In this document: piece by piece, positions 4,631 through 56,910 of the stretch
Layout of the letters: the number at the start of each line of letters is the position of its first letter
Position numbering within the stretch: position 1 is the stretch's first letter
Assembly (NCBI RefSeq): GCF_030341905.1
Contig: NZ_JATAAF010000012.1
Location: 17,406 to 81,405, forward strand
Length of the DNA: 64,000 nt
Source: Porticoccus sp. W117
GTDB lineage: Bacteria; Pseudomonadota; Gammaproteobacteria; Pseudomonadales; Porticoccaceae
Direction: 5' to 3'
Notes under the pieces: model-generated
Told to the model about the DNA's origin: nothing
Seen by the model: the letters and a program-made list of their open reading frames with translations, nothing else
Databases searched by the model: none
Translations under genes and position numbers: made by a program

Positions 4631-5713
4631 ATGACGAAGAAGGTTCTTATTTTACCCGGCGACGGTATCGGCCCGGAAATTGTCACCGAAGCGGAGCGCG
4701 TTCTGCGTGCTGCGGATGAAAAATTTAACCTGGGACTGGAGATTGATCACGGCCTGTTGGGTGGTTCAGCCATTGATCAACACGGTGCACCTTACCCGGA
4801 AGAAACCTCCGCCAAGGCTAAAGCGGCAGACGCCATTTTGCTGGGCGCTGTGGGTGGCCCCAAGTGGGACAATATCGAGCGCAGCATTCGCCCGGAGCGT
4901 GGCCTGCTGGGTATTCGCTCTGAGTTGGAGCTGTTTGGCAACCTGCGCCCTGCGATTCTCTATCCGCAGCTGGCGGATGCGTCTTCCCTGAAGCCAGAGG
5001 TGGTATCCGGTCTAGATATTCTGATTGTGCGTGAGCTGACCGGTGGCATTTACTTTGGCACTCCGCGGGGTATTCGCGAGCTGGAGAACGGCGAGCGCGA
5101 AGGCTACAACACTTACAAATACAGCGAGTCGGAGATTCGCCGCATTGGCGTGGTGGCCTTTGAATCCGCTCGCAAGCGCAATGGCCGGGTTTGCTCCGTA
5201 GACAAAGCCAATGTGCTGGAAGCCACTATTCTGTGGCGCGAAATTATGGAAGAAGTGGCCAAAGACTACCCGGACGTGGAATTGAGCCATATGTACGTGG
5301 ACAACGCCGCCATGCAGCTGGTGCGCGCGCCCAAGCAGTTCGATGTGATGGTGACCGGCAATATGTTTGGCGATATTCTGTCTGATGCCGCTGCGATGCT
5401 TACGGGTTCTATTGGTATGCTGCCTTCGGCCTCTCTGGATGCCAGCGGCAAGGGCATGTACGAACCCTGTCACGGCTCTGCCCCGGATATTGCCGGGCAG
5501 GGCATTGCCAACCCGCTGGCGACCATTCTTTCTGCTGCCATGATGTTGCGTTACTCGCTGGATATGAGTGCGGCGGCGGATGCCATTGAAAGTGCGGTTG
5601 ACACCGTGCTGGATAAAGGTCTGCGCACCGCCGATATTTACACCGATGGCGATGTCAAAGTCTCCACCAGTGAAATGGGTGCCGCAGTTGTTGAGGCGTT
5701 GGCTGCCCAGTAA
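4631..5713 (+). CDS. leuB: 3-isopropylmalate dehydrogenase
   Basis: 360 aa. Isocitrate/isopropylmalate dehydrogenase motifs ([23 protein letters not shown]). Confidence 0.97.
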
Positions 5714-5739
5714 CGCTTGCTAGAGTAAGGTCGAATAGT

Positions 5740-5777
5740 GGCAGGGGGTGCGTTACACTTCCTGCCCTGTTTTTTTA
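5740..5777 (+). terminator. intrinsic terminator after leuB
   Basis: Hairpin ggcagg...cctgcc followed by a T7 run. Confidence 0.6.
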
Positions 5778-5821
5778 GGCGGTCAACAGATCGCCATTGA
5801 GATGTAATAAAGAGAAGTGCG

Positions 5822-6925
5822 ATGAAACGAGTAGGTCTAGTAGGTTGGCGCGGCATGGTGGGCTCCGTATTGATGGAACGCATGCGTGCCGAGAACGATT
5901 TTGCCGATATCGAACCGGTATTTTTTACCACCTCCCAGGTAGGGCAGGAAGGCCCGGCAGAGGCGACTGAAACCCTCAAGGACGCTACCGACATTAGCGA
6001 ACTCAGCGCTATGGATATTATCGTTACCTGTCAGGGTGGCGATTACACCAAGGCGGTGTACCCGCAACTGCGTGAATCCGGCTGGAACGGCTACTGGATT
6101 GACGCTGCCTCGGCACTGCGTATGGACGACAGCGCCTTGATCGTACTGGATCCGGTGAATCTGGACGTGATCAAGAACGGCATCGCGGGCGGTGTGAAAA
6201 ACTTTATTGGCGGTAACTGCACCGTCAGCCTGATGCTGATGGCCATGGGCGGTCTGTTCAGAAATGGCGTGGTGGATTGGGTCAGTGCCATGACGTACCA
6301 GGCGGCTTCCGGGGCCGGTGCCCGCAATATGCGCGAGCTGATCAGCCAGATGGGTGTGCTGCGCGATAACGTCGCTGTGGAGCTGGATAATCCGGCGTCT
6401 GCCATTTTGGATATCGATCGCAAGGTGGCCAATACCATGCGCAGCGACAGTTTCCCCACCGACAATTTTGGCGCGCCACTGGCCGGTAGTCTGCTGCCCT
6501 GGATTGATGTAGAGCTGGAAAGCGGTCAATCCAAAGAAGAGTGGAAAGCCCAGGTGGAGACCAACAAAATTCTGCAAGGTCACAAAACTATTCCGGTGGA
6601 CGGGGTTTGTGTCCGCATTGGCGCCATGCGCTGCCACAGCCAGGCGCTGACGGTAAAACTCAACCGCGATGTGCCCATGGACGAAGTGGAATCGATGCTG
6701 GCCGAGGCCAATGACTGGGTGCAGGTAGTGCCCAATCACCGCGATGATACCCTGCGCGACCTCACCCCAACGGCGGTCACTGGCCACTTGCATATCCCGG
6801 TTGGGCGTTTGCGCAAAATGCATATGGGTGGTGAATACTTGTCGGCCTTTACGGTGGGTGACCAGCTGCTGTGGGGTGCCGCCGAGCCGCTGCGCCGTAT
6901 GCTTCGCATCCTGTTGGAATCTTAA
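5822..6925 (+). CDS. asd: aspartate-semialdehyde dehydrogenase
   Basis: [22 protein letters not shown]-terminus. Active-site Cys in GGNCTVSLM. 367 aa. Confidence 0.95.
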
Positions 6926-11179: not shown

Positions 11180-11794
11180 GTGTCGACTCGCGTAAAAATC
11201 TGTGGCATTACTTCTGTGGAAGACGCTCGCCATGCTTTACAAGCAGGTGCAGATGCCATTGGCTTGGTGTTTTACGACAAGAGCCCCAGATTTGTAGAAA
11301 CAGATGTTGCCCGGCAAATTTCCGCTGCCGTTGGCCCTTTTGTCACTCTGGTAGGGTTGTTTGTGAATGCCTCTGCCGAGCAGGTGAATAAGGTGTTGGG
11401 TACGGTTCCCCTGCAGGTTTTGCAGTTTCATGGGGATGAAAGCAGCGACTTTTGCCGGCAATTTGGCCGCCCCTGGTACAAAGCCATTCGTATGGCGCCG
11501 GATTTGGGTGTGGCGGAGCAGGTGCAGGCTTTTGGTGATTCCCACGGCTTGTTGTTCGATGCCTGGCAGGCAGATAAATACGGCGGGACTGGGGCAACCT
11601 TTGAGTGGCAGCGGATACCGGCGATGAATAAACCGGTTATTTTGGCCGGTGGGTTGACCCCGGAAAATGTGGTCGAAGCGGTAAAGACCGTGCGCCCTTA
11701 CGCCGTGGATATCAGCGGTGGTGTCGAAAGTTCCCCCGGTAAAAAGTGCCCGCAAAAAATGCAGCAGTTTATTGAGCGCGCTAAAAGCGCGTAA
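11180..11794 (+). CDS. trpF: N-(5'-phosphoribosyl)anthranilate isomerase
   Basis: VKICGITSVEDA N-terminus, GTG start. 204 aa. Confidence 0.92.
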   Translation: MSTRVKICGITSVEDARHALQAGADAIGLVFYDKSPRFVETDVARQISAAVGPFVTLVGLFVNASAEQVNKVLGTVPLQVLQFHGDESSDFCRQFGRPWYKAIRMAPDLGVAEQVQAFGDSHGLLFDAWQADKYGGTGATFEWQRIPAMNKPVILAGGLTPENVVEAVKTVRPYAVDISGGVESSPGKKCPQKMQQFIERAKSA

Positions 11795-13018
11795 TTGGAG
11801 ATCGCAGTGAGTTCAACGATTGATTTCAACCAGTACCCTGACAATAGCGGCCACTTTGGCCCCTACGGCGGTCGTTTTGTGTCGGAAACCCTGATGCATG
11901 CTCTGGATGAGCTTGAGGCCAACTACGCTCGGCTTAAGGCTGACCCGGAATTGCAGGCGGAGTTTGACCGCGACCTGGCCCATTATGTGGGCAGGCCATC
12001 ACCGCTGTACCACGCCGAGCGCTGGTCCCGGGAAACCGGTGGCGCGCAAATCTACCTGAAGCGGGAAGACCTCAATCACACCGGCGCTCACAAAATTAAC
12101 AACACCATAGGTCAGGCGCTGTTGGCTAAATACAGCGGCAAAACCCGGATTATTGCCGAAACCGGGGCAGGGCAGCATGGTGTTGCCAGTGCCACTGTGT
12201 GTGCCCGTCTGGGTTTGGAATGTCATGTCTATATGGGTGAAGAAGACGTGCGCCGTCAGGCACTCAACGTCTACCGCATGAAATTGCTGGGGGCTACGGT
12301 GCACCCGGTGAGCTCCGGCTCCCGCACCCTCAAGGATGCCATGAACGAGGCCATGCGCGACTGGGTTACCAATGTCGACAACACCTTTTACATCATCGGC
12401 ACCTGTGCCGGGCCTCACCCGTACCCGGAGTTGGTGCGCAACTTTCAGTCGGTGATCGGTCGCGAGGCTCGCACTCAATGTTTGGAAATGACCGGCAAAC
12501 TGCCGGACGCGCTGGTGGCCTGTGTGGGTGGCGGCTCCAATGCCATCGGCTTGTTTCACCCTATGCTGGGTGACGAATCCGTGGCCATGTACGGTGTGGA
12601 AGCGGGTGGCCACGGGGTGGAAACCGGCGAACACGCAGCCCCGCTCACTGTGGGCGTGCCTGGCGTATTGCACGGCAATCGCACCTACCTGATGGAGGAT
12701 GAAGATGGCCAGATTATCGAAACCCACTCGGTATCCGCAGGCCTCGACTATCCCGGTGTTGGCCCGGAACACGCCTGGCTCAAGGATCAGGGAAGGGTGG
12801 AATACGTCACCATCGACGACGATGAAGCACTGGTGGCGTTCCGCAAACTGACCCAGATAGAGGGCATTATGCCCGCCCTGGAATCCAGCCATGCCTTGGC
12901 CTATGCGGAAAAACTGGCGGCGACCATGAGCCCGGAGCAAATTGTGCTGGTGAACCTGTCAGGCCGCGGTGACAAGGACATTCTTACAGTGGCGGAAATC
13001 GACGGTATTACGGTATAG
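11795..13018 (+). CDS. trpB: tryptophan synthase beta chain
   Basis: [11 protein letters not shown] and HTGAHKINN (PLP lysine) motifs. The start may be the GTG at 11807. Confidence 0.95.
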
Positions 13019-17155: not shown

Positions 17156-18682
17156 ATGTGTGGCATAGTCGGTATTTTTGGTAACGGTGACGTCAATCTT
17201 GAACTCTATGACGCCCTTACCATGTTGCAACATCGGGGGCAGGACGCGGCGGGAATTACCACCTGTGAAAATGGCTTGTTTCACCAGCGCAAAGACAACG
17301 GTCTGGTGAAGGATGTTTTCCACACCCGCCATATGAAACATCTGGTGGGTAATGTGGGCATTGGCCATGTGCGCTACCCCACAGCGGGCAGCTCCAGCCC
17401 GGCGCTGGCGCAGCCGTTTTATGTGAATTCCCCCTACGGTATTTGCATGGCCCACAATGGCAATCTGACCAATTCGGCCCAGTTGCATGAGCATATTTTC
17501 AAATCGGATATGCGCCATGTGAACACCGATTCGGATTCCGAATTGCTGCTCAATGTGTTTGCCAACGAACTGCAATCTCAAGGCAAGCTGAAGCCCGGCG
17601 CCGACGATATTTTTGCCGCTATTGAGCGCCTCCACGGTCGCTGCACTGGTGCCTATGCGGTAGTTGGGTTGATCGCCAACTACGGTCTGTTCGCGTTTCG
17701 TGACCCGCTGGGCATTCGCCCGCTGGTGTATGGTAAGCGCGAAGGCACTGGCGGTACCGAGTATATGATCGCCTCCGAGAGCGTTGCCCTGGATACCATG
17801 GGTTATGAACTGGTGCGCAGCGTTTACCCCGGTGAAGCTTTGTTTATTGATATGGATGGCAAACTTCACAGCCGCCAGTGTGCGGACAACCCCAAGCTGG
17901 TACCCTGCATTTTTGAGCACGTGTACTTTGCCCGCCCGGACTCCATGATCGATGATGTGTCGGTGTACAAATGCCGCCTGCGCCAGGGCGAAAAACTGGC
18001 GGAGAAAATTCTTCGGGAAATGCCTGACCATGACATTGACGTGGTGATTCCTATTCCCGATACCAGCCGTGTGGCTGCCCAGAGTATTGCCGAGCGCCTT
18101 GGTTTGAAACTGCGTGAAGGCTTTATGAAAAACCGCTACATCGGCCGCACTTTTATTATGCCGGGGCAAAAACAGCGCAAGAAATCTGTGCGCCAGAAGC
18201 TCAACCCCAACAAGCTGGAATTCCAGGGCAAGAACGTCTTGTTGGTGGATGACTCTATCGTGCGCGGTACCACCAGCGGAGAAATTATCCAAATGGCTCG
18301 CGATGCCGGTGCCAGCAAGGTGTACATTGCATCCGCAGCGCCGGAGGTGAAATTCCCCAATGTGTACGGCATCGACATGCCGTCGGCGGAAGAGCTGATT
18401 GCCCACGGCCGCACAGTGGAAGAGATCGCCGAGCAGATTGGCGCCGATAAGCTGATTTATCAGGACTTGGACGATCTGATCGAATCTGCCAAAGAGGGCA
18501 ACAGTGATATCAACCACTTTGATTGCTCGGTGTTTAACGGTGAATACGTCACCGGCGATGTGGATCAAGCCTATCTGGATGCCCTCAACGCCGCCCGCAA
18601 CGACAATGCCAAAGATGGCAAAGGCGAGGGGCCGGAATCTTCCGATTTGATCGGTATTCACAACGCCTCGGCGGCACGCTAA
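17156..18682 (+). CDS. purF: amidophosphoribosyltransferase
   Basis: Start MCGIVGIFG (N-terminal Cys nucleophile) at 17156. The ORF-track ORF 17033.. is an upstream in-frame extension overlapping cvpA. Confidence 0.95.
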
Positions 18683-18693
18683 TCTAAGCAGAA

Positions 18694-18788
18694 CGTCATC
18701 CCCGCGCAGGCGGGGATCCATCTTGAAGGCGGCACTAAAGTCTGTAAATGCTGTGGCTTATGGATTCCCGCCTGCGCGGGAATGACGA
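18694..18788. repeat. REP-like palindromic element, family E copy 1 (gtcatccccgcgcaggcggggatcc ... ggattcccgcctgcgcgggaatgacg)
   Basis: Pair of inverted hairpins. Related copies at 22428 (nested) and 39570. Confidence 0.75.
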
Positions 18789-20043: not shown

Positions 20044-20122
20044 CCGTAGGGCGGATTAGCACAGCGTAATCCGCCGCCTCCTGAGTCATTGGTGGATTAC
20101 GCTTCGCTAATCCACCCTACGT
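20044..20122. repeat. REP-like palindromic element, family D copy 1 (ggattagcgaagcgtaatcc)
   Basis: Inverted repeat. Copies also at 26806 and 35758. Confidence 0.75.
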
Positions 20123-20157: not shown

Positions 20158-20685
20158 ATGAAATTTCTAAAAGGTTTGTTAGTGATTGTACTGTTGCTGG
20201 TAGTGGTTGGCTTTGTGCTGCCGGGCAGTACCCATGTGGAACGTTCGACGGTGATTAATGCCCCTCAAACCCAGGTTTTTGCCTACCTGAATGACTTTCA
20301 AAAATTCAATCTTTGGTCACCTTGGGCGAAAAAAGACCCCAATACACGCTACCAATTCAGCGGCCCCGCTACGGGCGTTGGTAGCAAAATGTCCTGGCAA
20401 AGCGATCACAAAGAAGTGGGCTCCGGGTCACAGGAAATTACAGCTTCCCAGCCCAGCGATCACCTGGAAACCTTTCTCGACTTTGGTGATCACGGCACCG
20501 CCAAAGCGCACTATCGGTTGAGTAATACCAACGGTATGACCCAAATTACCTGGGGCTTTGATACGGATCACGGCTGGAATTTATTGAGTCGCTATTTTGG
20601 TTTGATGATGGACGATATGGTGGGTGCGGATTTTGAGGCTGGGTTGGCAAATTTGAAGCAGGTTGTAGAGGGGCAGGAGACTTAA
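20158..20685 (+). CDS. SRPBCC-superfamily (polyketide-cyclase-like) protein with N-terminal membrane anchor
   Basis: 175 aa. N-terminal hydrophobic helix, then a START/Bet-v1-like pattern. Function unknown. Confidence 0.6.
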   Translation: MKFLKGLLVIVLLLVVVGFVLPGSTHVERSTVINAPQTQVFAYLNDFQKFNLWSPWAKKDPNTRYQFSGPATGVGSKMSWQSDHKEVGSGSQEITASQPSDHLETFLDFGDHGTAKAHYRLSNTNGMTQITWGFDTDHGWNLLSRYFGLMMDDMVGADFEAGLANLKQVVEGQET

Positions 20686-20715
20686 AAAAAACAGCACTTG
20701 TGAGTACGCAAAGCC

Positions 20716-21048
20716 ATGAATTGCGAAGTAACAATAGACGGTTCGAATATACGTGACTGGGATTCATTTCATAATGAATTTCAAGAGAAAATGGGCTTCT
20801 TTGATGGCTACGGTAGAAACCTGGATGCATGGCTGGATTGCATGACTGATATATTTACAAGGGGGCAGTATGAAAGCCTTTGCAAGTTTAATTTAAATCA
20901 AGATGACTCCTTTACGATGAAGATAATAAATGGAGAGAAATGGATGTCTCAGAGCAAAGAAACATTGTTGGCATTCATGGACTGTTATGAACCGTTGCGT
21001 GAATCCAAAGATGGTCACTATGGGCTTAGTATTTCGCGGGGTATTTAA
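20716..21048 (+). CDS. barstar-family ribonuclease inhibitor (orphan immunity-like gene)
   Basis: IDGSNIRDWDSFHNEF...YGRNLDAWLDCMT aligns to barstar IRSISDLHQTL...YGENLDALWDCLT, including the D35/D39 equivalents. Noticeably AT-rich compared with neighbours. Confidence 0.75.
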   Translation: MNCEVTIDGSNIRDWDSFHNEFQEKMGFFDGYGRNLDAWLDCMTDIFTRGQYESLCKFNLNQDDSFTMKIINGEKWMSQSKETLLAFMDCYEPLRESKDGHYGLSISRGI

Positions 21049-21094
21049 CAGATTTGCGGCGCAGCGAGAGATCGCTGCTTCTCTGCAAGACAGG

Positions 21095-22309
21095 TTAAGC
21101 TGCCACCTTCAATCGATTCCGCCCACTTCTTTTAGCCCCATAAAGCGCATTGTCCGCCGCTTTCATTACTCGCTCAAAAGCACCATCCGCCACTGAGCTA
21201 TCCGCCAATCCCATACTGACGGTAATGCGAATATTGCTTTTGCGGGGGGTGGCACCGCGTTTTTTGATACCGTTTTTCTGCCGCCGTGGGCGGCTGTGTT
21301 TGTCACGCATTACCATGTCGTATTCGGCGATAGTCTGGCGCAGTTTTTCCAGTTCTTCTTCGGTTTGCTCGGCGTTTTTGCCGTTGAACAACAGGCAAAA
21401 TTCTTCACCACCGTAGCGGAATACTTTACCTCCGCTGCCCACTTGGCGAAGTTTTCCGGCCACTACTTTCAGAACCTGATCCCCCAGGTCGTGGCCGTGT
21501 TTGTCATTGATTTTTTTAAAGTGGTCGATGTCCACCATGGCCAGGCTGTAATTGCTGCGCAATTCTTTGGCGGCTTTGTGCAGAGCGCGGCGGTTGGCGA
21601 TCTGGGTGAGTTCGTCCCGGTAGCCGATATGCAGGAAGCTCAATACCTGGTTGATCAGCAGCACCAGACCGATGGTGGCAAACAGTACGGCAGAAATATT
21701 GGCCAGTTGGAACCAGCCAAGGGTAATGCCAGTCAGCAGGGCACAGCCCAGCAGGCTGCTGTCGGCGTAGTTATTGCGCCACAGCAACCGGAAAACTGCC
21801 AGCAGTGAGACGCCAATAAACAGGAAGGCGGCCAGTGTGGGGAGCTTCAATCCGTGAAAGCTGGTAGCCAGCAAGGCGCTGGCTTGGTCGCCGAACCACA
21901 GCGGGTTAATAGCGAACAGGCCACTCATTAACAGTGCGGTCAGAGGTGCCGCCAGTACTGCGATAATGCCACTTGGGTGGCGCCAACTGGTGTCTGGCAA
22001 TAGCAACAGTGCGCCTATGGCGATGGGCAGCCAAAGGGCCAACAGGGAGAATATCTGCCCCGCAGGCTGGGTGGATAGTGCCGCTTGCAGGTGGTTGCGA
22101 ATTAACCAGTAGCAGAGTATTGCCAACAGTGCTGTGGCCAGCTCTCTTCCCTGATGAGCGATCAGGGCAATCAGCGCCGCAAGGGCGCAGATAACATAGG
22201 GCAATGAGGCGAGTTGTTCACCGGGAACGTCGGATGCGTGGGGAAGGGCGACCAGCGCTGCTACCAGGCATAGCAGTGGCGTAAGAAAGCGAGCGAGTAT
22301 CGGCACCAT
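21095..22309 (-). CDS. membrane-anchored GGDEF-domain diguanylate cyclase
   Basis: Multi-TM N-terminal half and a C-terminal GGDEF domain (RYGGEEFCLLF). The likely start is MVPILARF at 22309, because the longer ORF start lies inside REP A2. Confidence 0.85.
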   Translation of the reverse strand: MVPILARFLTPLLCLVAALVALPHASDVPGEQLASLPYVICALAALIALIAHQGRELATALLAILCYWLIRNHLQAALSTQPAGQIFSLLALWLPIAIGALLLLPDTSWRHPSGIIAVLAAPLTALLMSGLFAINPLWFGDQASALLATSFHGLKLPTLAAFLFIGVSLLAVFRLLWRNNYADSSLLGCALLTGITLGWFQLANISAVLFATIGLVLLINQVLSFLHIGYRDELTQIANRRALHKAAKELRSNYSLAMVDIDHFKKINDKHGHDLGDQVLKVVAGKLRQVGSGGKVFRYGGEEFCLLFNGKNAEQTEEELEKLRQTIAEYDMVMRDKHSRPRRQKNGIKKRGATPRKSNIRITVSMGLADSSVADGAFERVMKAADNALYGAKRSGRNRLKVAA

Positions 22310-22379
22310 ACGGCAGTGAGTGGTTGTTGTGCTTATGGTGACAAGTGTAGGGGTTTGCGTGGATTGGGTAAAGGCGTTG

Positions 22380-22556
22380 GCCGCACGTCGCACGTCTGAC
22401 GTCGCACGCTAAAACCAACGTGGTTTTGTCATTCCCGCGGAAGCGGGAATCCATTTGGCTGCTTCGTGCGATCCATGGATCCCCGCCTACGCGGGGATGA
22501 CGTGTTTTTTTGGGCAGCGTGCTTGGTTTTAGCGTGCGACGTCAGACGTGCGACCG
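22380..22556. repeat. REP-like composite element, family A copy 2, carrying a nested family-E element
   Basis: Family A arms at both ends. Family E hairpins (gtcattcccgcggaagcgggaatcc / ggatccccgcctacgcggggatgacg) sit in the centre. Confidence 0.8.
22428..22503. repeat. REP-like element, family E copy 2, nested inside family A copy 2
   Basis: The same hairpin pair as at 18694..18788. Confidence 0.7.
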
Positions 22557-49087: not shown

Positions 49088-49774
49088 ATGGAAATGAAAT
49101 CCTCTAAAACAGCGGCACAAGCTGTAATGCGTCAACTCATAATCACATGGACCGATTTTGAAAGTCGCCTCCTGAAAGTGCCTATTATCGAGCGCATTAT
49201 GCGCGATCAATTACAGCTGGAAGATTATCGCCAAATCCTGCTAAACCATCGTCAGCAGGTTATAGAAGGCAGTCGTTGGATCGCCCGAGCCTCCTCTTCT
49301 ATTGATAATCGCTACCCGGAACTACGCTCTACTTTTATTCGTCATGCCAATACTGAGCATCGCGATTATCAGATGTTGGACGCAAATTACTTGTCAGTAG
49401 GTGGCGACGTAGAGACGTTGGCCAACAGTGAAAAGAATATAGGTAGTGAAGCCTTGTCTGCGTGGATGTTTCACCAAGCCAGTCAGCCCAATCCATTCGA
49501 CCTGTTAGGCGCAATGTTCATTATCGAGGGATTGGGAAAACAGTTTGCCCGCACCTTCGCTCAGAAAATTCAGAAACAATTGAGACTGAGCGATGATCAA
49601 GTGAGTTTCTACCTATACCATGCTGATCACGACGAAGAGCATATTGGTGAACTGGAAGATGCGCTGCAAAGCGGTATTCTCAGCGATGATGGCTTAGCCG
49701 GCCGCATTGCCAAGACCGCGCGGGTAACCGCCAGGCTTTATCTGTTGCAGTTGGAAGAACTGGGGAACTACTGA
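49088..49774 (+). CDS. heme-oxygenase-like fold protein, probable diiron oxidase (CADD/PqqC/TenA superfamily)
   Basis: 228 aa. Candidate metal ligands E...H (ANTEHRDYQ), E (IIEGLGKQF) and H-x3-D-x2-H (YHADHDEEH) spaced as in CADD-type enzymes. AAGGA RBS 6 nt after the KAS-III stop. Confidence 0.6.
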   Translation: MEMKSSKTAAQAVMRQLIITWTDFESRLLKVPIIERIMRDQLQLEDYRQILLNHRQQVIEGSRWIARASSSIDNRYPELRSTFIRHANTEHRDYQMLDANYLSVGGDVETLANSEKNIGSEALSAWMFHQASQPNPFDLLGAMFIIEGLGKQFARTFAQKIQKQLRLSDDQVSFYLYHADHDEEHIGELEDALQSGILSDDGLAGRIAKTARVTARLYLLQLEELGNY

Positions 49775-50634
49775 TGAGTTGGTCTGACGATTTCGACAAT
49801 CAAACCATCAATACAAAAGACCCTAATCCTTGGCTGGCACTCTATCTGGATGGCAGTTTGCCTATGCACGATCCTGCCAAGCAGGCGCTGCTGCGTGGTC
49901 ACAATACTTGGACCCGACGACTGCTTCTGCCCATTGTTCGTCCGCTTGCGCGGCTAAATATTATTTTGGTGCAACTTCTTCGAGTCATTTTGCCCGAGCG
50001 TTGTAGTTCTTCGCGGATATTGCACAAAACCATCTATTGGGGATTGAAAACTTTCGTCCGAAACGATGCCAATTACCTAATTTTGAGGCACTTCCATATC
50101 GGCACGGAGATACTGGGTTTTATTGCTGATAACGCCAAGGTCACCATCGAGAGTACCGAACCCCTGCGTCCCAATAATTTGGAAGGTTTAATCGAGGATA
50201 CCTTCCTGATTCACGATCTGAATATATTCAACTTTATTTTGGAGTTAAATCACAAGCTGAAGGAAGAGGGGCGGGATCTGACAGCTCCCGAACACCTTAA
50301 TTTGGGTTCTATTACCGATGGCGAGTTTGATATTGAGTTACCTAAAGAGAAGGCATTCAATGTGTTGGACTTACAGACAGCTATTGAAATGTATACGCCT
50401 TTGTACGCGCTGTTTCTATCCGATCGAGACTTCTGGCGTGCTAGTAATTCTTTACAGCTGGATGAAACGATTGCCATTTACATCGGTAAAATACTGAATG
50501 ATGCCATACCATTGGGTTTGGTGAATAATCGGCATCCGTCAGTACCTGTGTCGACTTTACAGGCGGGATTTCGGTTGATGCTGCATGGCTTGGATGCAGA
50601 GATTCTGCATGGATACCTGAGGAGTTTGAAATAA
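49774..50634 (+). CDS. hypothetical protein (286 aa), translationally coupled to the upstream gene (TGATG overlap)
   Basis: Stop/start overlap with the diiron-oxidase gene. No motif I recognise. Confidence 0.55.
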   Translation: MSWSDDFDNQTINTKDPNPWLALYLDGSLPMHDPAKQALLRGHNTWTRRLLLPIVRPLARLNIILVQLLRVILPERCSSSRILHKTIYWGLKTFVRNDANYLILRHFHIGTEILGFIADNAKVTIESTEPLRPNNLEGLIEDTFLIHDLNIFNFILELNHKLKEEGRDLTAPEHLNLGSITDGEFDIELPKEKAFNVLDLQTAIEMYTPLYALFLSDRDFWRASNSLQLDETIAIYIGKILNDAIPLGLVNNRHPSVPVSTLQAGFRLMLHGLDAEILHGYLRSLK

Positions 50635-50685
50635 CTGCTTATGTCTCAGCGGGTGAGTTATCAAATCTACCCCCACAGGTATCTA

Positions 50686-51312
50686 CTAGTCTCCCCCACA
50701 GCTACCACATGAGCTGCTGCAACCTCCACCACAGCGACCGTCTTTACCACCACCTTTACCACCGAAGCTGGCAAACAAAAATCGCAGAGCCAAAAAGCCC
50801 ACGACACACCAAAACCCTATTTCTAACCAACTGGTGCTTTGATCCCCACTTTCTGCAAAGGCAGTCGCTACGGTTCCTGCTAACGCTGCGGGTACAAACC
50901 ACTTCAGTATGTGACTCTTATTATTTGGCTTTGAATTCCATACTAATTGTGGCGGCTCTTTGCCAAATTCGGCTCGATAAAGGGCAAGGGTTTTCTCGAA
51001 TTGCATTTGCATCTGAGTATCTGAGGGAGTGTGATGCAGCTCGGCTCCAAGTATTTCTGAGCAAAACCGACCCCAGTAGGATTTAGTGAATGTCAGGTGT
51101 AAATGCCATACAAGATCAATCGCAGGGGAGGGTGAAACCATACCTTGCTGCAAGGTGGCCAGATAGCAAAATCGCTTGTATTCATCTACTACCTCTAGAC
51201 AGTGATTATGCTTCCAGCCAGTTTCTTGCTTTAGCTTGGTGATAAATAAATCATATTGCCGATCAGCAATTTTGTGATTACGAAGCCGATTCCATAGTTC
51301 TTGATTTGTCAT
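50686..51312 (-). CDS. DUF1399-like domain membrane protein with C-terminal Gly/Cys-rich tail
   Basis: 208 aa. N-terminal ~140-aa domain with IDLVWHLHLTFTKSYWGRFC (reminiscent of the plant/bacterial glycine-rich-domain protein family). One TM helix (WLEIGFWCVVGFLALRFLFASF). Tail GGKGGGKDGRCGGGCSSSCGSCGGD. ATGA start/stop overlap with the upstream NTase gene. Confidence 0.6.
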   Translation of the reverse strand: MTNQELWNRLRNHKIADRQYDLFITKLKQETGWKHNHCLEVVDEYKRFCYLATLQQGMVSPSPAIDLVWHLHLTFTKSYWGRFCSEILGAELHHTPSDTQMQMQFEKTLALYRAEFGKEPPQLVWNSKPNNKSHILKWFVPAALAGTVATAFAESGDQSTSWLEIGFWCVVGFLALRFLFASFGGKGGGKDGRCGGGCSSSCGSCGGD

Positions 51313-52106
51313 GCTACCCCCAATACTGAATGAAACAACTCGTTCAAATCTGACATATCAGGCCTAAGCATTGCCTTATCCAAATCAAGGTTGCTCAAAC
51401 GCTCAATCTCCGATTCCACATAATCATTGAGCGCCTTGATGGCGGGTACAAGCTCTTTTTCGGTGCTGGCTTGTTTGCGTTTCAAAAGAGCAGTTATCTC
51501 CCGATCAAGTTCTGATCCGTCAGGCACTAGCTTGCGCAGCCGATCAAATTCGATGGGCGGAGGTTCGCGGTACTCTTCTAACCAGCGGACAGAGAGCAGG
51601 GGGCGCAGCACATAGAAGTACTTTTTCAGGGGTACGATTTCTGCTTGCAAGTAACCACGGTAGTTGGTTTTGGCCATACTGCGATAATGATAGATGCCTT
51701 TTTCAACAGAGTATCCCCGGCTAAGCAAACTTCTGGCTTGTTCAGCAAAGTGGCCATCATCTACGTACACAATAGGTGATTGGAGCCACTCCACAAACGA
51801 GGGGTTAGACTTGCTGAAAAGCCTCAGTGCTTTGCGAACATCCCAGCCATTGATGTCTATTTCGTCGACTATCTCGTATTCGATCACATCCCGTTTATCT
51901 TCCAGATCTACAGCCACATACCAATCTTTTGGGTGCGCGTAGATAAAGCGAACATCAAAGTCGCTGTTTTGTGAGGCGAACCCCCAGGCTCTGCTGCCGG
52001 ATTCCACAGCGTACAGAATTTTGACGCTGTGTTCTTTTTCGGCGGCGCGTATTCGTCGCAGGATTTCTGCTCGGGTTTCTTTAGGTATCACATGTTCCAT
52101 CATCAT
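51309..52106 (-). CDS. Pol-beta-superfamily nucleotidyltransferase (RlaP/PF10127-like)
   Basis: GS-x9-DxD NTase motif in ILYAVESGSRAWGFASQNSDFDVRFIY. 265 aa. Confidence 0.7.
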   Translation of the reverse strand: MMMEHVIPKETRAEILRRIRAAEKEHSVKILYAVESGSRAWGFASQNSDFDVRFIYAHPKDWYVAVDLEDKRDVIEYEIVDEIDINGWDVRKALRLFSKSNPSFVEWLQSPIVYVDDGHFAEQARSLLSRGYSVEKGIYHYRSMAKTNYRGYLQAEIVPLKKYFYVLRPLLSVRWLEEYREPPPIEFDRLRKLVPDGSELDREITALLKRKQASTEKELVPAIKALNDYVESEIERLSNLDLDKAMLRPDMSDLNELFHSVLGVA

Positions 52107-52163
52107 GATGTCACCTATCAGTGAAAGCCATCTATTCGCCGCAATAGCAAATAGATGGCGGGT

Positions 52164-53312
52164 TTAGCTGTTGGGAGACAACTTGACCATATCATTCAGC
52201 ACGCTATCGAGACCACCGTAAACGGAGATCTTGTCGATGCGGCCGGTGACACGCTCCAGTGCTTCCAGTTCTTTCAAACGCAGCAGCATTGGGTTGTTTT
52301 CCATCAGCTTGGCGGTGTTATGCAGGGAGCGCATCGCCTGAGTCTCCTCGCGACGCTTGATCAGGTTGGCTTCAGACTCTTTTTGAGCCTCTACAACCTG
52401 ATTCAGAATTTCCTTCATATCACCGGGCAAGATAATGTCTTTTACACCAACGCTTGCCAGTTCAATTCCGTACTCGGTCAGCTTGCTGCGAATACCGTCT
52501 GCAATGGCGACGTTCAAGCTGTCTTTGTCTTCCAGCAAGTTATCCAGCGTCTGGGTTCCTACCGCTTCGCGAAGGTGCAGTTGCAGCTCGCGATAGACAA
52601 AGTTGGCGAAGTCGTTCAGCTTGAGTGCAACGATCTTGGGGTCGATCACCCGGTAGCTACCGCTTAGGTTTACCCGCAAGCTGACACGGTCTTTGGTCAG
52701 GATTTCCTGGCCGCTGACTTCGATCGCTTGCAAGCGCAAATCCAGCAGTTTGACGGCTACTGAGCGGTTGTACCTCCAGTAACCGTAGCTTCCTGGCTGC
52801 AGCAGCTCCTGAAACTTGCCATTAACGGTCAGAAGACCCACGTGCTCGTCGGGTACCTCCACATAGTTGATGGCGTTGGAGGCGTTGCGGCTTTTGCCAA
52901 TGGCCAAACCGCGGCCCAGCAACTTCAGCAGTTTGCTATCAATGGCAAACTTTTCGCTGATATCGATCACATCAATACGCACGTCTTCGATTCCCTTCCA
53001 TACGGCAAGGAAGGTGCCTGGTGCAAGAATATCCACCAGGTGACCATCGCGGTAGAACAGGCCTACCTGCATATCGGTCAGCTCAAAGCGGTCAATAAAA
53101 CCATTCAGCTTTTCGGCCTGAGTATTGAGCAGGAACTTGGCTTTGGCGTGGTCAAAAACAATGTTAGTGGCATCGTATTTTTCCAGGCGAGTTTTGCCAG
53201 CCAATGCGTTAATGCGATGGCGGCCGGGCTCAAGTACTCGGTCCAGCCGGTTGCGCCGGTACAGTAATGCCCGCTCGTTATCGGCGATATCTACAGTATT
53301 CCATAACATCAT
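52164..53312 (-). CDS. SPFH/band-7 (stomatin/prohibitin/flotillin-like) domain protein
   Basis: 382 aa. SPFH-like core (ILTKDRVSLRVNLSGSYRVIDPKIVALKLND) and a coiled-coil C-terminal region. No NfeD partner gene adjacent. Confidence 0.7.
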   Translation of the reverse strand: MMLWNTVDIADNERALLYRRNRLDRVLEPGRHRINALAGKTRLEKYDATNIVFDHAKAKFLLNTQAEKLNGFIDRFELTDMQVGLFYRDGHLVDILAPGTFLAVWKGIEDVRIDVIDISEKFAIDSKLLKLLGRGLAIGKSRNASNAINYVEVPDEHVGLLTVNGKFQELLQPGSYGYWRYNRSVAVKLLDLRLQAIEVSGQEILTKDRVSLRVNLSGSYRVIDPKIVALKLNDFANFVYRELQLHLREAVGTQTLDNLLEDKDSLNVAIADGIRSKLTEYGIELASVGVKDIILPGDMKEILNQVVEAQKESEANLIKRREETQAMRSLHNTAKLMENNPMLLRLKELEALERVTGRIDKISVYGGLDSVLNDMVKLSPNS

Positions 53313-53640
53313 TTTTCTCTCCTTTCTCTTGTTGTTCTTTAGGTTACAAATAAAGCGAGGCTCACCCGAAAACCCTGGGGCTGACAGCTTGATCTGCAGT
53401 GGGTGGCGGGTCAGTGGTTTGCGAATATCTGGTTCATTGCGCCTTTGTGTTAACTACTGCGCGCGTAAAACCCGTATTCAGCAAACTTGACCAGACACCG
53501 TCTACAAACTCCCCTGATAGCGGCAGTGAGATCGGCGTTCCAGTTTGTCAATTCTCTCGTTTGATCCAAAATTCGAATCAAACGATTGATGTCAAACATT
53601 CCAGAACCATGAGCCTCTGGTAGATTTATTTAGCAAGGAC

Positions 53641-53690
53641 CTGAACCTTGTGGGGACTCGAACCCCGGGCCTCTCGGCCTTACCTTTTTG
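53641..53690 (-). other. tRNA 3'-fragment-like element (variable-arm-like hairpin GGCCGAGAGGCC + T-arm-like GGGGTTCGAGTCCCC) immediately 3' of tRNA-Met
   Basis: Minus-strand reading. There is no 5' half. Possible att remnant or degenerate tRNA. Confidence 0.35.
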
Positions 53691-53706
53691 TCGTGTTTCA
53701 GACGAC

Positions 53707-53782
53707 TGGTACTTTGGCAGGATTCGAACCTGCGCCCGATCGATTATGAGTCGATTGCTCTACCCAACTGAGCTACAAAGTC
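53707..53782 (-). tRNA. tRNA with CAU anticodon (Met elongator or Ile2-lysidine type)
   Basis: Cloverleaf with D-arm GCTCAGTTGGGTAGAGC, anticodon loop CTCATAA, T-arm GCAGGTTCGAATCCTGC. By my reading the 1:72 pair is G:A and CCA is not cleanly encoded. Confidence 0.65.
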
Positions 53783-53912
53783 GGTGTTTAGGCCGGTTAT
53801 CAAATTGGTACACAACACATGAAGCATGCTTGTGCCAGGCCGATAATCAGAATCGGCTCCGCTAATTTGAATAACAGTTCCCAAACCTTGTTGTGACAGA
53901 CCGCTTATTGCA

Positions 53913-54476
53913 TTAAGCAGCCTGCCAGCATCTTTGCCCGGTAAACCGAGCTTGCAGGTACTCCATTTGATCGCCGCGAATGCGACGGTTTGCCAAGTAC
54001 ATAAACTCAAATACATTTGGCTCAAAGGGAATAGCCAGCAATTCCATACCTGCCTGCTCCGGTGTGCGGCCACCTTTGTGGCTATTGCAACGGGCGCAGG
54101 CGGCAACCACGTTTACCCAGACATCCGGGCCTCCTTGCACACGGGGCACAATGTGATCTCGGGTCAGTACCCGATCATCAAACTGCTGTCCGCAGTACAT
54201 ACAGCGGTGGCCGTCGCGGCGAAACAGCAGGCGATTGCTCAATGCCGGTATAAAGGCTCTTTTCCCTATGTCACCCTCGCAGGCAATAATGGGGGCAAGC
54301 AGCAAAGACGAGCGCTCACCATGGCTATTGATGCCACCGTTAATACGGTAGTGGTCTTCGCCCAGGCTCCACAGCACTTGCTCTTTCACATACAGAACCA
54401 CAGCCTCTTCAGGGGTAACCCATGATTGAGGCAGACCTGTTTTGTTCAGCCTTAGAATGCTGTTTTGCATTGCCAT
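53913..54476 (-). CDS. HNH endonuclease
   Basis: HNH motif HRCMYCGQQF...TRDHIVPRVQGG...AACARCNSHKG. Start MAMQNS at 54476 with a GGAGAAGGAGA RBS. Embedded in the tRNA array. Confidence 0.8.
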   Translation of the reverse strand: MAMQNSILRLNKTGLPQSWVTPEEAVVLYVKEQVLWSLGEDHYRINGGINSHGERSSLLLAPIIACEGDIGKRAFIPALSNRLLFRRDGHRCMYCGQQFDDRVLTRDHIVPRVQGGPDVWVNVVAACARCNSHKGGRTPEQAGMELLAIPFEPNVFEFMYLANRRIRGDQMEYLQARFTGQRCWQAA

Positions 54477-54518
54477 TTTTCTCTCCTTCTCCAATATCGT
54501 GCTCGGCATTGAGCACTA

Positions 54519-54600
54519 ACACCCGATGCAGGAATCGAACCTGCCACCTTCAGCGCCGCTGACCAAAGTTCCACTCCTGTAGAGCTTTTTAATCAGCTGG
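54519..54600 (-). other. degenerate tRNA-like region (good T-arm GCAGGTTCGATTCCTGC but no complete cloverleaf)
   Basis: Several short hairpins and T-arm-like motifs on both strands. Possible pseudo-tRNA. Confidence 0.3.
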
Positions 54601-54614
54601 ACTGGTCGAGTCCG

Positions 54615-54689
54615 TGGTTGGGGCAGTGGGAGTCGAACCCACCTATGCCGGCTTAAAAGGCCGGTGCACAACCGCTATGCCATACCCCA
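54615..54689 (-). tRNA. tRNA with UUU anticodon (nominally Lys) on a Gln-like body
   Basis: TGGGGTATGGCATAGCGG...CACCGG-CCTTTTAAG-CCGGCAT...GGTTCGACTCC...TGCCCCA-A-CCA. Body matches tRNA-Gln conventions (U1:A72, G2-G4), but loop CUUUUAA and discriminator A73 are Lys-type. Confidence 0.6.
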
Positions 54690-54704
54690 AAAAATCATTA
54701 ACAT

Positions 54705-54778
54705 TGGCTGCGGTGCCTGGAATCGAACCAGGGATATCGGAGTCAAAGTCCGATGCGTTACCATTACGCTACACCGCA
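54705..54778 (-). tRNA. tRNA-Gln (UUG)
   Basis: TGCGGTGTAGCGTAATGGTAACGCATCGGACTTTGACTCCGA...CCTGGTTCGATTCCAGG. U1:A72, anticodon loop CUUUGAC. Confidence 0.8.
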
Positions 54779-54793
54779 TATTTCCTGTGCATT

Positions 54794-54867
54794 TGGGGTG
54801 GCGCCGGGGATCGAACCCTGGTCTCCTGGTTCACAGCCAGGCACTCTGCCACTGAGCTAACACCACC
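54794..54867 (-). tRNA. tRNA-His (GUG) with extra 5' G
   Basis: GGTGGTGTTAGCTCAGTGGCAGAGTGCCTGGCTGTGAACCAGG...GGTTCGATCCCCGGCGCCACCCCA. Confidence 0.85.
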
Positions 54868-54889
54868 GTAGCAACACTTATTTCTAAAT

Positions 54890-55037
54890 TGGTGCCCCAT
54901 CTTGGAGTGACTCGAGCCATCCATGGCTCTCGGGCTGCGCCCGCCTGCGGCGCCCAAATTTGCTCTCCTGCAAATTTGTCGAACCAAGAACCTCCAGAAT
55001 CTAAATCTGGCGCCTCTTCCAATTGGGCCAATGGGGC
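54890..55037 (-). ncRNA. aberrant 148-nt tRNA-like gene: tRNA-type acceptor (GCCCCAT...ATGGGGC-A-CCA), D-arm and anticodon arm (loop TTTAGAT, anticodon UAG) but about 90 nt of extra hairpins where the T-arm should be
   Basis: Read from the minus strand. The termini pair perfectly and end in ACCA. The interior has three hairpins (AAATTTGC/GCAAATTT, a GC-rich stem, GAGCC/GGCTC) instead of a canonical T-arm. Confidence 0.4.
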
Positions 55038-55052
55038 AAATAATTAATTATT

Positions 55053-55127
55053 TGGCTGGCCTGGCAGGACTCGAACCTGCGATATTCCGGTTAACAGCCG
55101 GACGCTTTACCACTCAGCTACAGGCCA
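55053..55127 (-). tRNA. tRNA-Asn (GUU)
   Basis: TGGCCTGTAGCTGAGTGGTAAAGCGTCCGGCTGTTAACCGGA...GCAGGTTCGAGTCCTGCCAGGCCAGCCA. Confidence 0.85.
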
Positions 55128-55140
55128 ACAGCTTTTAAAA

Positions 55141-55183
55141 ACACTAAAAAATAAAACCCCGACTGGGGCTGCCAGACGGGGTT
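55141..55183 (-). terminator. intrinsic terminator (minus-strand sense) insulating the tRNA array from rtcBA readthrough
   Basis: aaccccg...cggggtt hairpin. On the minus strand it is followed by TTTTATTTTTTAGTGTTTTT. Confidence 0.6.
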
Positions 55184-55798
55184 TCGAAATTGCTTTCTAC
55201 TGATCCGAATGGCGTAGCCATTCGGAACTTCCGAAGACTACTTCATTGTTGTTTCTCCTGACCTTCTGCCATTGAGTGAGCCAGAAAATTACGTTGTTTA
55301 TGAGAGAAGAGGGGGCTTACATAGTTTTTGGGCGCATCTTCCCTCTGCCCACTTATCTGCGGGCACAGTTCATTAAAATTCGAAAGTTGTTCTGTCCAAT
55401 TACTCAGCAAGCTATTCTCCTCACTGTTCTCATCATTTTCTTTCGGGTACTAAAAAGCCCGGATCAGTTACCTCGTAAAGAGGTGGCCTGCCGGGCTTTA
55501 CAATAAAATATCATTTCATTGTAAACCTGAAAGGCCAGTTAGCCTTCCAGGTTGAAAGCTAACTAATACGCTACGTTCAGGTGTTCACGATCTAACCCAG
55601 CACACATTGGCTGGCTATTTTTAAATTGCACTATATTTTGGTCGCAACTATCCTGGCACAGTATCGAGCTGTGCTTGGGAAGTGTGTTGTAGATAAAGTC
55701 TATCTTCATTGCGACGATTAAAAATTCAAAAAATATAATTTGGTTGGCAATAATAATCTTCAAAAATATTATGTCAATCAATTTCCGAATTTTAAAAA

Positions 55799-56815
55799 CT
55801 ATTTATCGACAAAAACTTCCCAGTAATCTTTTTTCAGCTCTTTAAGCGAGATGTTTACTCCTGTCATTTGTTTAATCACATCAATATTTGTCAGCAAGTG
55901 CTGACTTGGTTGTAGAGTACGAAAGCATCCTCCATTACCTAATGCCATAGGCAATACCAGTTGATCGGCCAAGTGCTCACCCACTGGTACATCTGCTTCC
56001 AGATAACGCTTCATATCCTTCATCGCTCGCCCGGCAACTCGCTCTGCACTGACATGCCGTTCGCCAACAGATTCAAACACTTCCGTAACTGCTTCTGATG
56101 CAACTTGCAACGATAGTAAGTTGCCAGGGCCTGCGGAGTTAACCAGTTTTTGCGTCAACTCTGATTCGCTCCAGTAGCATTTCTTTTGCACTTGAGCCAA
56201 CTCGCGTTCTGTCACATGCTCTGGCACGCGCGCAGATATGGCGACAGCTTTTCGCTTAATAATTTCGCCTCGCTTGACCAAATCCAGAGACTTGACTCCC
56301 TTGGTTGGTTGTATTCGGGCTTTCCAAAATCCGCCGCCTGCCGGGTAAAAACCGTATCGCTCTAGTTCCACCTCAACATGGCAACCCATTTTATTTATGA
56401 TTGGTAAAAAGCACCGTTCAATAAACTCGAAGCTCGGTGCCATACCGTTATGGGTTCCACCCTCCAGAGTTAATTCGCTAATATCATCAGCAAGAAGCAG
56501 GGGTAGTAGCACCGTCTGGAATACCAACGTCGTACTGCCCGCCGAGCCAATCGCAAAATGGTAGCTGCCTGATTTAACCTTTCCGGGTTCAAACGTCACC
56601 CTGGATGATCCCATTGCATCACCACTGACCTGAGCATTGCAAATGCCCTGAGCAGCCCGCAAGCAGGTTAAATGCTGGCGCAATAATCCCGGCTTGTTTC
56701 TGCCTGCCCGAATATTCTCAATGCAGACCGACTTGCCAAGGCACATGGCCAGGGTCAACGAGGTTCTGAATATTTGCCCTCCACCTTCGCCTTGAGAGCC
56801 GTCGATAGTGATCAT
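55799..56815 (-). CDS. rtcA: RNA 3'-terminal phosphate cyclase
   Basis: MITIDGSQGEGGGQIFRTSLTLAMCLGKSVCIENIRAGRNKPGLLRQHLT aligns with E. coli RtcA. 338 aa. Confidence 0.93.
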   Translation of the reverse strand: MITIDGSQGEGGGQIFRTSLTLAMCLGKSVCIENIRAGRNKPGLLRQHLTCLRAAQGICNAQVSGDAMGSSRVTFEPGKVKSGSYHFAIGSAGSTTLVFQTVLLPLLLADDISELTLEGGTHNGMAPSFEFIERCFLPIINKMGCHVEVELERYGFYPAGGGFWKARIQPTKGVKSLDLVKRGEIIKRKAVAISARVPEHVTERELAQVQKKCYWSESELTQKLVNSAGPGNLLSLQVASEAVTEVFESVGERHVSAERVAGRAMKDMKRYLEADVPVGEHLADQLVLPMALGNGGCFRTLQPSQHLLTNIDVIKQMTGVNISLKELKKDYWEVFVDK

Positions 56816-56910
56816 TCTTCTTTCTCTTTAGCTTGTTTATTCACAACTAGCCGCAAGCGTCCGTCAAAAACGGTCGCCATCCCCTGGCGTAAAAACATCC
56901 CTGTAAACCG

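Follow-up and report, generated by a model that had tools for sequence, protein, structure and literature searches.

Barstar of Bacillus amyloliquefaciens (PF01337; PDB 1BRS and 1A19), a protein of 89 amino acids, contacts barnase through Tyr29, Asn33, Asp35, Trp38, Asp39, Thr42, Glu76, and Glu80, and mutagenesis of barstar has identified Asp39 as the main energetic hot spot for barnase binding. In polymorphic toxin systems, the immunity family Imm-Barstar, whose signature is a DxxxD acidic motif, is paired specifically with Tox-Barnase and is listed for Ntox21 as well (Zhang et al. 2012, PMC3482391). Toxin linkage is typical of the barstar family rather than required, because the Escherichia coli K-12 gene yhcO (b3239, “putative barnase inhibitor”) is solitary, residing on the same strand just downstream of an unrelated operon, after aaeB. 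Here we describe a barstar family gene of Porticoccus sp. W117, located within a 64,000-nt stretch of contig NZ_JATAAF010000012.1 (hereafter the window). With slightly more confidence than doubt, we consider it to be an orphan immunity gene directed against RNase toxin domains delivered by other bacteria. We lean toward this interpretation because no RNase is encoded nearby in the window and because the gene arrived alone.

The open reading frame (ORF) of 110 amino acids is found exactly where the original prediction, made from the DNA letters only, had placed it (Table 1). The encoded protein has the same sequence (100% identity) as the NCBI entry WP_289154283.1 / MDM3871678.1 (“barstar family protein [Porticoccus sp. 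W117]”), and the family assignment is already present in the NCBI annotation. The protein matches the Pfam Barstar profile PF01337 with an E value of 9.8e-15 and 54.8 bits, against a gathering cutoff of 23.4, and the match spans residues 5 to 47 and profile positions 4 to 46 of 96, which is the N-terminal half only. None of the NCBIfam models matches it. A phmmer search against all PDB sequences returned barstar chains alone (best E = 0.005), with an alignment that runs without gaps over residues 5 to 45 and sets NLDAWLDCMT opposite barstar NLDALWDCLT. The DxxxD motif D37-A-W-L-D41 is therefore aligned with barstar D35-A-L-W-D39, such that D37 and D41 are the equivalents of Asp35 and Asp39. 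The two proteins also share the signature YG-N-D-A--DC-T and an acidic character (pI 4.6 for the W117 protein). The similarity to barstar that had been predicted, including the Asp pair, is thus borne out by the hidden Markov model, with which the predicted fold and the DxxxD motif agree.

An alignment of close homologs was built as input for AlphaFold2. The resulting model (pLDDT 79.3, pTM 0.71) has the element order b1-a1-a2-long loop-b2-a3-a4-b3, and this predicted α/β fold of three parallel strands and four helices is the one that characterizes the barstar family. When the model was compared with the PDB by Foldseek, the top 30 matches were all barstars (target-normalized TM 0.63–0.86, best rmsd 2.0 Å). 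These include B. amyloliquefaciens barstar, for which the predicted b-a-a-b-a-a-b fold gives a TM of up to 0.86 and an rmsd of 2.0 Å, as well as 2CX6 (E. coli-type) and 5F4C (Salmonella), which we take to be YhcO and STM3363. The matches that follow the barstars are ORC/Cdc6 proteins and are orders of magnitude weaker. According to the model, the whole protein is a predicted barstar fold in which the loop after helix 2 is longer by ~17–18 residues, and its C-terminal half is assigned to barstar by the predicted fold alone. Unlike barstar, the W117 protein has 110 residues, an overall identity to barstar of ~15%, and a C-terminal half that is unrecognizable by sequence. The long loop (residues 46 to 64) is predicted with lower confidence (pLDDT 63–71) and is gapped versus barstar in alignments.

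This loop defines what we call the long-loop subfamily. We searched 1.84 billion cluster representatives with a profile of the ten closest sequences; 580 proteins matched it at E ≤ 1e-3, and 194 did so at E ≤ 1e-10. Most of the 580 are 105 to 115 amino acids in length, are matched over their full length, and have the long loop, and therefore the long-loop form is a real subfamily. In 67 of its sequences, the most conserved block corresponds to codons 27 to 45 of the W117 gene. Residues I12, W15, F18, H19, Y32, G33, N35, A38, W39, D41, C42, and M43 are nearly or fully invariant, with full invariance for D41, N35, G33, A38, W39, C42, and M43. The equivalents of barstar Asp39 (D41) and Asn33 (N35) are hence found in every sequence, and the position of Thr42 is occupied by Thr or Ser in 61 of the 67 (T44 in the W117 protein). 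Part of these invariant residues are also fold determinants common to all barstars. At the positions of Glu76 and Glu80, the alignment is unreliable.

Only one of the relatives found in the survey is linked to a toxin gene. It is a barstar-family gene for a protein of 110 amino acids with the same long loop, carried by Salmonella record NZ_CP030199.1 (L089), and it begins 3 nt past an ORF that has the character of an Rhs tip. Residues 6 to 146 of this upstream ORF match the end of Rhs cores (7Q97, E = 1.8e-51), and its residues 172 to 255 are matched by RNase Sa-family proteins (E = 4e-12 to 1e-10 for PDB 1PY3 and RNase Sa entries). Judged from these matches, the two genes are a classical Rhs-toxin/immunity pair. 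This finding shows that a long-loop barstar can serve as the cognate inhibitor of an injected RNase of the barnase type. The Salmonella protein is 32% identical to that of W117 (E = 3e-12), and hence the W117 protein has a homolog that acts as the immunity partner of a toxin in another genome, as an orphan immunity protein would. The pairing with an RNase Sa-like domain supports the orphan-immunity reading.

Two further observations concern positions 1–1115 of this record, a 2,729-bp “plasmid”. Its Rhs tip crosses the record start and is absent from the PLSDB gene table, and a SymE toxin gene is convergent to the long-loop barstar-family gene.

We looked for a partner RNase throughout the window. 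Fifty-seven long ORFs were taken as likely genes, the barstar-like gene included, and 53 of the other 56 were scanned with Pfam (three ORFs at 46.7–49.8 kb were left out); no RNase or toxin domain was found in the 53. A profile prepared from the sequences of barnase, binase, and RNase Sa was run over all stop-to-stop ORFs of the window and had no match in any of them, whereas the same profile search gave a clear positive control on the Salmonella record. As had been predicted, the two neighbors are an upstream SRPBCC gene and a downstream GGDEF gene, and according to Pfam neither encodes an RNase. The barstar-like gene is solitary across the 20 kb upstream and the 43 kb downstream that the window holds, which upholds the earlier claim that there is no barnase partner here.

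Its surroundings are genes of ordinary metabolism. Upstream are leuCD, leuB, asd, truA, trpFBA, accD, folC, a SPOR protein gene, cvpA, purF, and metZ, and downstream are gltA, sdh, sucAB, lpd, and sucCD, followed by homogentisate-pathway genes and genes for DsrE/DsrH/DsrC-family proteins. Among the window ORFs, no Rhs, VgrG, or contact-dependent inhibition (CDI) context and no immunity array was found around the gene. The W117 protein is like the Imm-Barstar proteins of polymorphic toxin systems (PMC3482391) in its predicted α/β fold and DxxxD motif, and by analogy its mechanism, blockage of a Tox-Barnase domain, would be expected to be the same; unlike those pairs, its gene lacks an upstream toxin, such a delivery context, and membership in an immunity array.

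Solitude is not peculiar to W117. We examined 80 subfamily loci from species-representative genomes, W117 itself not being among them, and 80 from metagenomes, which with additional loci makes ~165 in all, some of them redundant. These span Gamma-, Beta-, and Alphaproteobacteria, Bacteroidota, Planctomycetota, Acidobacteriota, Verrucomicrobiota, Chloroflexota, and others. When the neighbors at 83 loci (the 80 genome loci and three homolog contigs) were clustered by BLAST, no family recurred in more than four. Likewise, 30 tightly linked upstream ORFs were mutually unrelated by phmmer, with the exception of three pairs. In a sample of ten upstream genes, seven have ordinary functions (gyrB, gltX, moaA, exbD, a branched-chain amino acid permease, a Cys/Met pyridoxal phosphate enzyme, and an α/β hydrolase), while the other three lack a Pfam match, and genes of this subfamily are often found right behind housekeeping genes. 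When 150 immediate neighbors were scanned with Pfam as a batch, with the C-terminal 300 amino acids used for long proteins, the result was 121 families, none with more than four members, and there was no RNase or toxin family among those with at least two. No barnase-type gene was found within ~6 kb at the ~165 loci, either by the barnase profile or by the neighbor Pfam scan. One marginal RNase Sa match (L038, E = 0.003) was rejected, as it lies in a low-complexity alternative frame inside a real 460-amino-acid gene on the opposite strand. Genes for a “barstar family protein” on annotated plasmid records are likewise solitary. Taken with yhcO, these loci establish that solitude is the rule for the long-loop branch.

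These surveys bear on a different explanation, in which the W117 protein is the cognate inhibitor of an endogenous barnase-family RNase, secreted or toxin-borne, encoded at an unlinked W117 locus outside the window. Our view covers part of one 81-kb contig, and the strongly conserved interface motif would fit a dedicated partner. Yet barnase and barstar are described as adjacent toxin-immunity pairs (PMC3482391), as they are on the Salmonella record; the W117 gene came as a 370-bp single-gene insert; and none of the ~165 loci has a barnase-type gene close by. We therefore regard an unlinked partner as unlikely.

Contigs of the relatives whose SRPBCC orthologs are closest to that of W117 (88%, 73%, and 70% identity) keep the gene order folC-(SPOR)-cvpA-purF-metZ-SRPBCC-GGDEF-gltA-sdhA (L085, L086, and L087). 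In a metagenome-assembled genome (L085) and in Porticoccus sp. GXU_MW_L64 (L086), the spacer between the SRPBCC and GGDEF genes is 182 and 112 bp, respectively, and is without a gene. The corresponding slot of bacterium SCSIO 12696 (L087) is occupied by another ORF, of 193 amino acids (5660–6241), that has no Pfam match, looks like a membrane protein, and is AT-rich (40% versus 51% GC), and therefore the convergent site appears to be a hot spot for single-gene insertions. No barstar remnant was detected by tblastn in the three contigs. The comparison with related strains that had been called for thus shows that none of the three closest relatives has the gene at this locus. The DNA specific to W117 is a single-gene insertion of ~370 bp; by spacer alignment, the last ~40 nt before the GGDEF stop codon, the hairpin included, are ancestral and common with GXU_MW_L64.

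The composition of the gene is foreign, as had been noticed earlier. Its GC content is 38.7%, in contrast to a mean of 52.7% (standard deviation 5.0) for the 56 other window ORFs (z = −2.8), and its GC content at third codon positions is 41% versus 59%. Among 333-bp windows, only 2.6% are equally AT-rich. The closest homologs of the protein, at 55 to 62% identity, belong to other lineages. We conclude that the gene was acquired horizontally as a single gene; because of this foreign composition, a gain by the W117 lineage is a more parsimonious explanation than loss on three occasions. The same tendency is seen across the subfamily, where 57 of 62 loci have a gene that is lower in GC than the DNA on either side (median difference −6.7 points, Wilcoxon p = 3e-11), and this AT-richness may be due in part to an amino acid composition rich in D, N, F, K, and M.

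Two specific origins for the insert were considered and set aside. An integron-cassette origin, suggested by an attC-like ATTTAAC...GTTAAGC, was rejected in that the right ~40 nt are ancestral (shared with GXU_MW_L64) and overlap the GGDEF stop codon. A mobile-element origin was rejected as well, as no direct or inverted repeats were found flanking the ~370-bp insert. Repetitive extragenic palindromic (REP)/miniature inverted-repeat transposable element (MITE)-like palindromes are present in this part of the window, between purF and metZ (18674–18787), metZ and the SRPBCC gene (20045–20121), and the GGDEF gene and gltA (22387–22554). Examples are a 32-nt perfect inverted repeat (22387–22418 / 22523–22554) and copies of CGTCATCCCCGCGCAGGCGGGGATCCAT. 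These elements generate spurious ORFs that start with MDPRLRGDD or MDSRFRGND, and related palindromes fill the SRPBCC-GGDEF spacer of both the metagenome-assembled genome and GXU_MW_L64.

A recently acquired gene might also be a nonfunctional passenger that is unexpressed or decaying. The 30 nt that separate the SRPBCC stop codon from the start of the barstar-like gene hold neither a promoter-like site on the + strand nor a clear Shine-Dalgarno sequence, as judged by a promoter/terminator scan and the sequence itself. Moreover, the protein is a singleton cluster at 90% identity, and the composition of the gene has not adjusted to that of its host. Against this, the ORF is intact and full-length, begins at a start codon that lines up with those of homologs, and keeps every residue that is invariant in the subfamily. 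The gene also starts 30 nt past the stop codon of the conserved SRPBCC gene, which has the same orientation, and no terminator separates the two; read-through from the SRPBCC gene is therefore the simplest expectation for its transcription. This arrangement suggests that the gene is probably transcribed from the SRPBCC gene, the likely source of its transcripts; a same-strand ORF ending at most 60 nt upstream is likewise found in 37 of 82 subfamily loci. On balance, we consider it very improbable that the gene is a mere passenger.

The barstar fold could instead have been recruited to another role, for example as a partner of some other nucleic-acid enzyme or as an accessory in RNA repair or stress, with no inhibition of RNase toxins. 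Deletion of the Salmonella barstar-like gene STM3363 altered swarming (PMC4534456), which would fit such a role. So would the essentially invariable solitude of the subfamily, the long extra loop that adjoins the binding helix, and the replacement of Tyr29. Domain fusions would fit it as well: some members of 230 to 350 amino acids carry the barstar-like domain at the C terminus, after a glyoxalase/bleomycin-resistance domain (P0023) or HEAT repeats (P0078), and others have N-terminal domains of 120 to 150 amino acids without a Pfam match. We considered these fusions as a pointer to an RNase partner and rejected them as such, given that none of the N-terminal domains, whether glyoxalase, HEAT, or unknown, is an RNase.

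A further point in favor of such a role is that some of the genes are embedded in RNA-repair operons. In Chryseolinea sp. (Cytophagales; L021, 4728–9886), the order is Band_7, barstar-like gene, RtcB, a 148-amino-acid ORF, and a HEAT protein, with an RlaP homolog ~5 kb further downstream (11223–11990). The same Band_7, barstar-like, RtcB, and RlaP genes occupy a whole 2.9-kb metagenome-assembled contig (L031). In Phycisphaeraceae (L028, 5863–9072, and L125), the gene immediately after the barstar-like one encodes a complete Pnkp, in which kinase, phosphatase, and ligase domains are all present. Two independent ligase adjacencies in ~300 neighbor slots exceed expectation at a rough p of ~0.01, a value that rests on an assumed frequency of RNA-repair ligases of ~1 in 4,000 genes. 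This adjacency fits a role in coping with RNase damage and is suggestive, not conclusive; in a limited literature collection, we found no paper that links barstar with RtcB or that mentions YhcO.

The RNA-repair context fits defense against RNases equally well, however, and two observations speak against a recruited fold more directly. No subfamily sequence examined departs from Asp at the position of Asp39, which matters most for the binding of barnase, and one long-loop relative is paired with an Rhs RNase Sa-like toxin. Recruitment to a different function is thus quite unlikely in our estimation. A link to phages or to known defense systems is not supported either: no subfamily relatives were found in IMG/VR or GenBank phages, PADLOC gave no match for the gene, and the only PHROG match is weak and to a PHROG of unknown function.

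Several points weigh against an orphan immunity gene as we have proposed it. The toxin-linked relative shows no more than 32% identity and lies on a record of 2.7 kb, which may be not a genuine plasmid but a piece of an Rhs locus left by the assembly. Only residues 5 to 47 resemble barstar in sequence. Within the interface, the Asp35 position (37) is Asp in 43 of the 67 subfamily sequences and Asn in 24, or about a third. Tyr29 is replaced by Gly31 in the W117 clade and by Phe in most of the subfamily, and Trp38 is out of register, with Leu40 at its position and Trp at position 39. The longer loop beside the binding helix could change the target. In addition, the window covers 64 kb of the W117 genome, and an unlinked cognate RNase may be encoded outside it; the gene itself is not part of an immunity array, and no recombinase is nearby. 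Lastly, the scan of the spacer revealed neither a promoter of the gene's own nor a clear ribosome-binding site.

If an orphan immunity gene is nonetheless what W117 acquired, the following mechanism can be proposed. The lineage acquired the long-loop barstar gene horizontally and alone, at a site where the SRPBCC and GGDEF genes converge, and read-through from the SRPBCC gene probably transcribes it. If the protein works as barstar does, helix 2, through its acidic face (D37, D41, N35, and T44), and the loop next to it would close off the active-site cleft of an RNase, and the target would be a guanyl-specific RNase of the BECR-fold barnase/RNase Sa type, bound in a 1:1 complex. The extra loop (residues 46 to 64) may extend or retune this interface. 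The protein would thereby shield cytoplasmic RNA from the RNase domains of competitors, such as those of Rhs/type VI secretion system or CDI effectors.

Comparison with other solitary genes helps to place this proposal. The W117 gene is like those for YhcO and STM3363 in being a solitary barstar-family gene of a gammaproteobacterium with an orphan function, and like yhcO it lies closely behind unrelated genes of the same strand. Unlike the W117 protein, YhcO has 90 amino acids, lacks the long loop, and is ~22% identical to it, and yhcO belongs to the conserved core genome of its species, whereas the W117 gene is a strain-specific, compositionally foreign insert. Acquired interbacterial defense islands are usually immunity arrays that have recombinases or lie on mobile elements, and have been validated by competition assays. 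The W117 gene differs from such islands in being single and without a mobility signature. What it would share with the orphan immunity genes and acquired interbacterial defense islands of Bacteroidales and other bacteria (e.g., PMC10470768, PMC12247911) is the concept of a horizontally acquired immunity gene that has no cognate effector and protects against non-self toxins.

The original prediction of an orphan immunity gene therefore stands in most of its parts: the protein belongs to the barstar family, the window holds no partner, the gene is foreign, and the one toxin-linked relative of the gene follows an Rhs-borne RNase Sa-like domain, an exogenous toxin of the kind that had been proposed. 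Its estimate of how unusual the gene is was too high, because NCBI annotates the barstar family here and because solitary barstar genes are common, as illustrated by yhcO and by nearly the whole long-loop subfamily.

Table 1. Coordinates of the features of the window that are discussed in the text
Feature	Position	Strand	Basis or remark
SRPBCC/Polyketide_cyc2 protein gene, upstream neighbor	20158..20685	+	Pfam PF10604, E = 2.6e-14; conserved in relatives
W117-specific DNA, single-gene insertion, ~370 bp	~20686..21057	.	Synteny, tblastn, spacer alignment
Spacer from SRPBCC stop codon to barstar-like start codon, 30 nt	20686..20715	+	Sequence; promoter/terminator scan
Barstar-family coding sequence	20716..21048	+	ORF call, ATG to TAA, 110 amino acids, WP_289154283.1
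Codons 27–45 (GFFDGYGRNLDAWLDCMTD), loop and helix 2 matching the RNase-binding surface of barstar	20794..20850	+	Alignment
D37 codon	20824–20826	+	Alignment to barstar
D41 codon	20836–20838	+	Alignment to barstar
Codons 46–64, helix 2-strand 2 loop that defines the long-loop subfamily	20851..20907	+	Model, alignments
Hairpin between the convergent barstar-like and GGDEF genes	21053..21089	.	Fold of 21046–21100: ΔG = −20.2 kcal/mol, z = −2.4
Membrane GGDEF diguanylate cyclase gene, convergent downstream neighbor	21095..22393	−	PF00990, E = 1.4e-30; TIGR00254; conserved in relatives
RNA-repair island (49.8–59.9 kb)	49774–59942		Starts ~29 kb from the barstar-like gene
DUF6999	49774–50634		RNA-repair island
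Weak GRDP-like match	50686–51312	−	RNA-repair island
RlaP	51309–52106	−	RNA-repair island
Band_7/SPFH	52164–53312	−	RNA-repair island
tRNA-Met (CAU)	53708–53782	−
HNH endonuclease	53913–54509	−	RNA-repair island
tRNA-Lys (UUU), tRNA-Gln (UUG), tRNA-His (GUG)	54615–54867	−
tRNA-Asn (GUU)	55053–55127	−
rtcA	55799–56815	−	RNA-repair island
rtcB	56911–58137	−	RNA-repair island
rtcR, divergent	58347–59942	+	RNA-repair island
463-amino-acid DUF2314 protein, weak DUF4261 match	Within 60036–63708
DUF4253	61487–62122		GC 42%
195-amino-acid ORF without Pfam match	62110–62697		GC 35.5%
DUF2225	62790–63515		GC 37.6%

Other features of the window also merit description. The hairpin downstream of the barstar-like gene may be a bidirectional terminator or a REP remnant. 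The GGDEF domain of the convergent neighbor matches Pfam in two stretches, which a short, very basic insert (...RDKHSRPRRQKNGIKKRGATPRKSN...) appears to split.

The window has an RNA-repair island of its own, whose Band_7, RlaP, and RtcB proteins are 39%, 48%, and 32% identical, over the aligned regions, to those of Chryseolinea sp. Between Band_7/HNH and rtcA there are five tRNA genes on the same strand (53708–55127). Anticodon nucleases such as PrrC, γ-toxin, and colicin E5 classically attack the tRNAs for Lys, Gln, His, and Asn, and the tRNA set beside the RNA ligase operon could be a spare-tRNA/repair module. Adjoining rtcR is a second AT-rich cluster (60036–63708), in which PADLOC found no match. 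One of its proteins belongs to DUF2314, which equals Imm34 and is found in “heterogeneous polyimmunity loci” (Zhang et al. 2012). This cluster may be a small island of solitary immunity-type genes; it is separate from the barstar-like gene, at a distance of 39 kb.

A broader and more speculative reading is that long-loop barstars are widespread stand-alone anti-ribotoxin genes, which would move singly, ride on the transcription of housekeeping operons, and constitute a layer of inhibitors above a layer of RNA repair. The fact that two unrelated lineages place the gene directly upstream of RtcB, with Band_7 and RlaP nearby, or of Pnkp supports the repair layer. We hold this reading as a whole to be unlikely. 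It would encompass at least 580 clusters at 50% identity, from Pseudomonadota, Bacteroidota, Planctomycetota, Acidobacteriota, Verrucomicrobiota, and others, and the targets might exceed classical barnase to include, for instance, several BECR-fold tips.

For the W117 genome, the finding concerns one accessory gene that was already correctly annotated, and its importance there is small: it probably provides a marine hydrocarbon-associated gammaproteobacterium with resistance to RNase toxins. What the survey adds is mildly new, namely that the long-loop branch is almost always solitary, that it is foreign in most loci, and that it occasionally resides in RNA-repair operons. If these proteins are broadly protective, they would represent a simple and common form of pre-emptive immunity in interbacterial warfare, and they would offer a convenient test case, as barstar-type inhibition is easy to assay.

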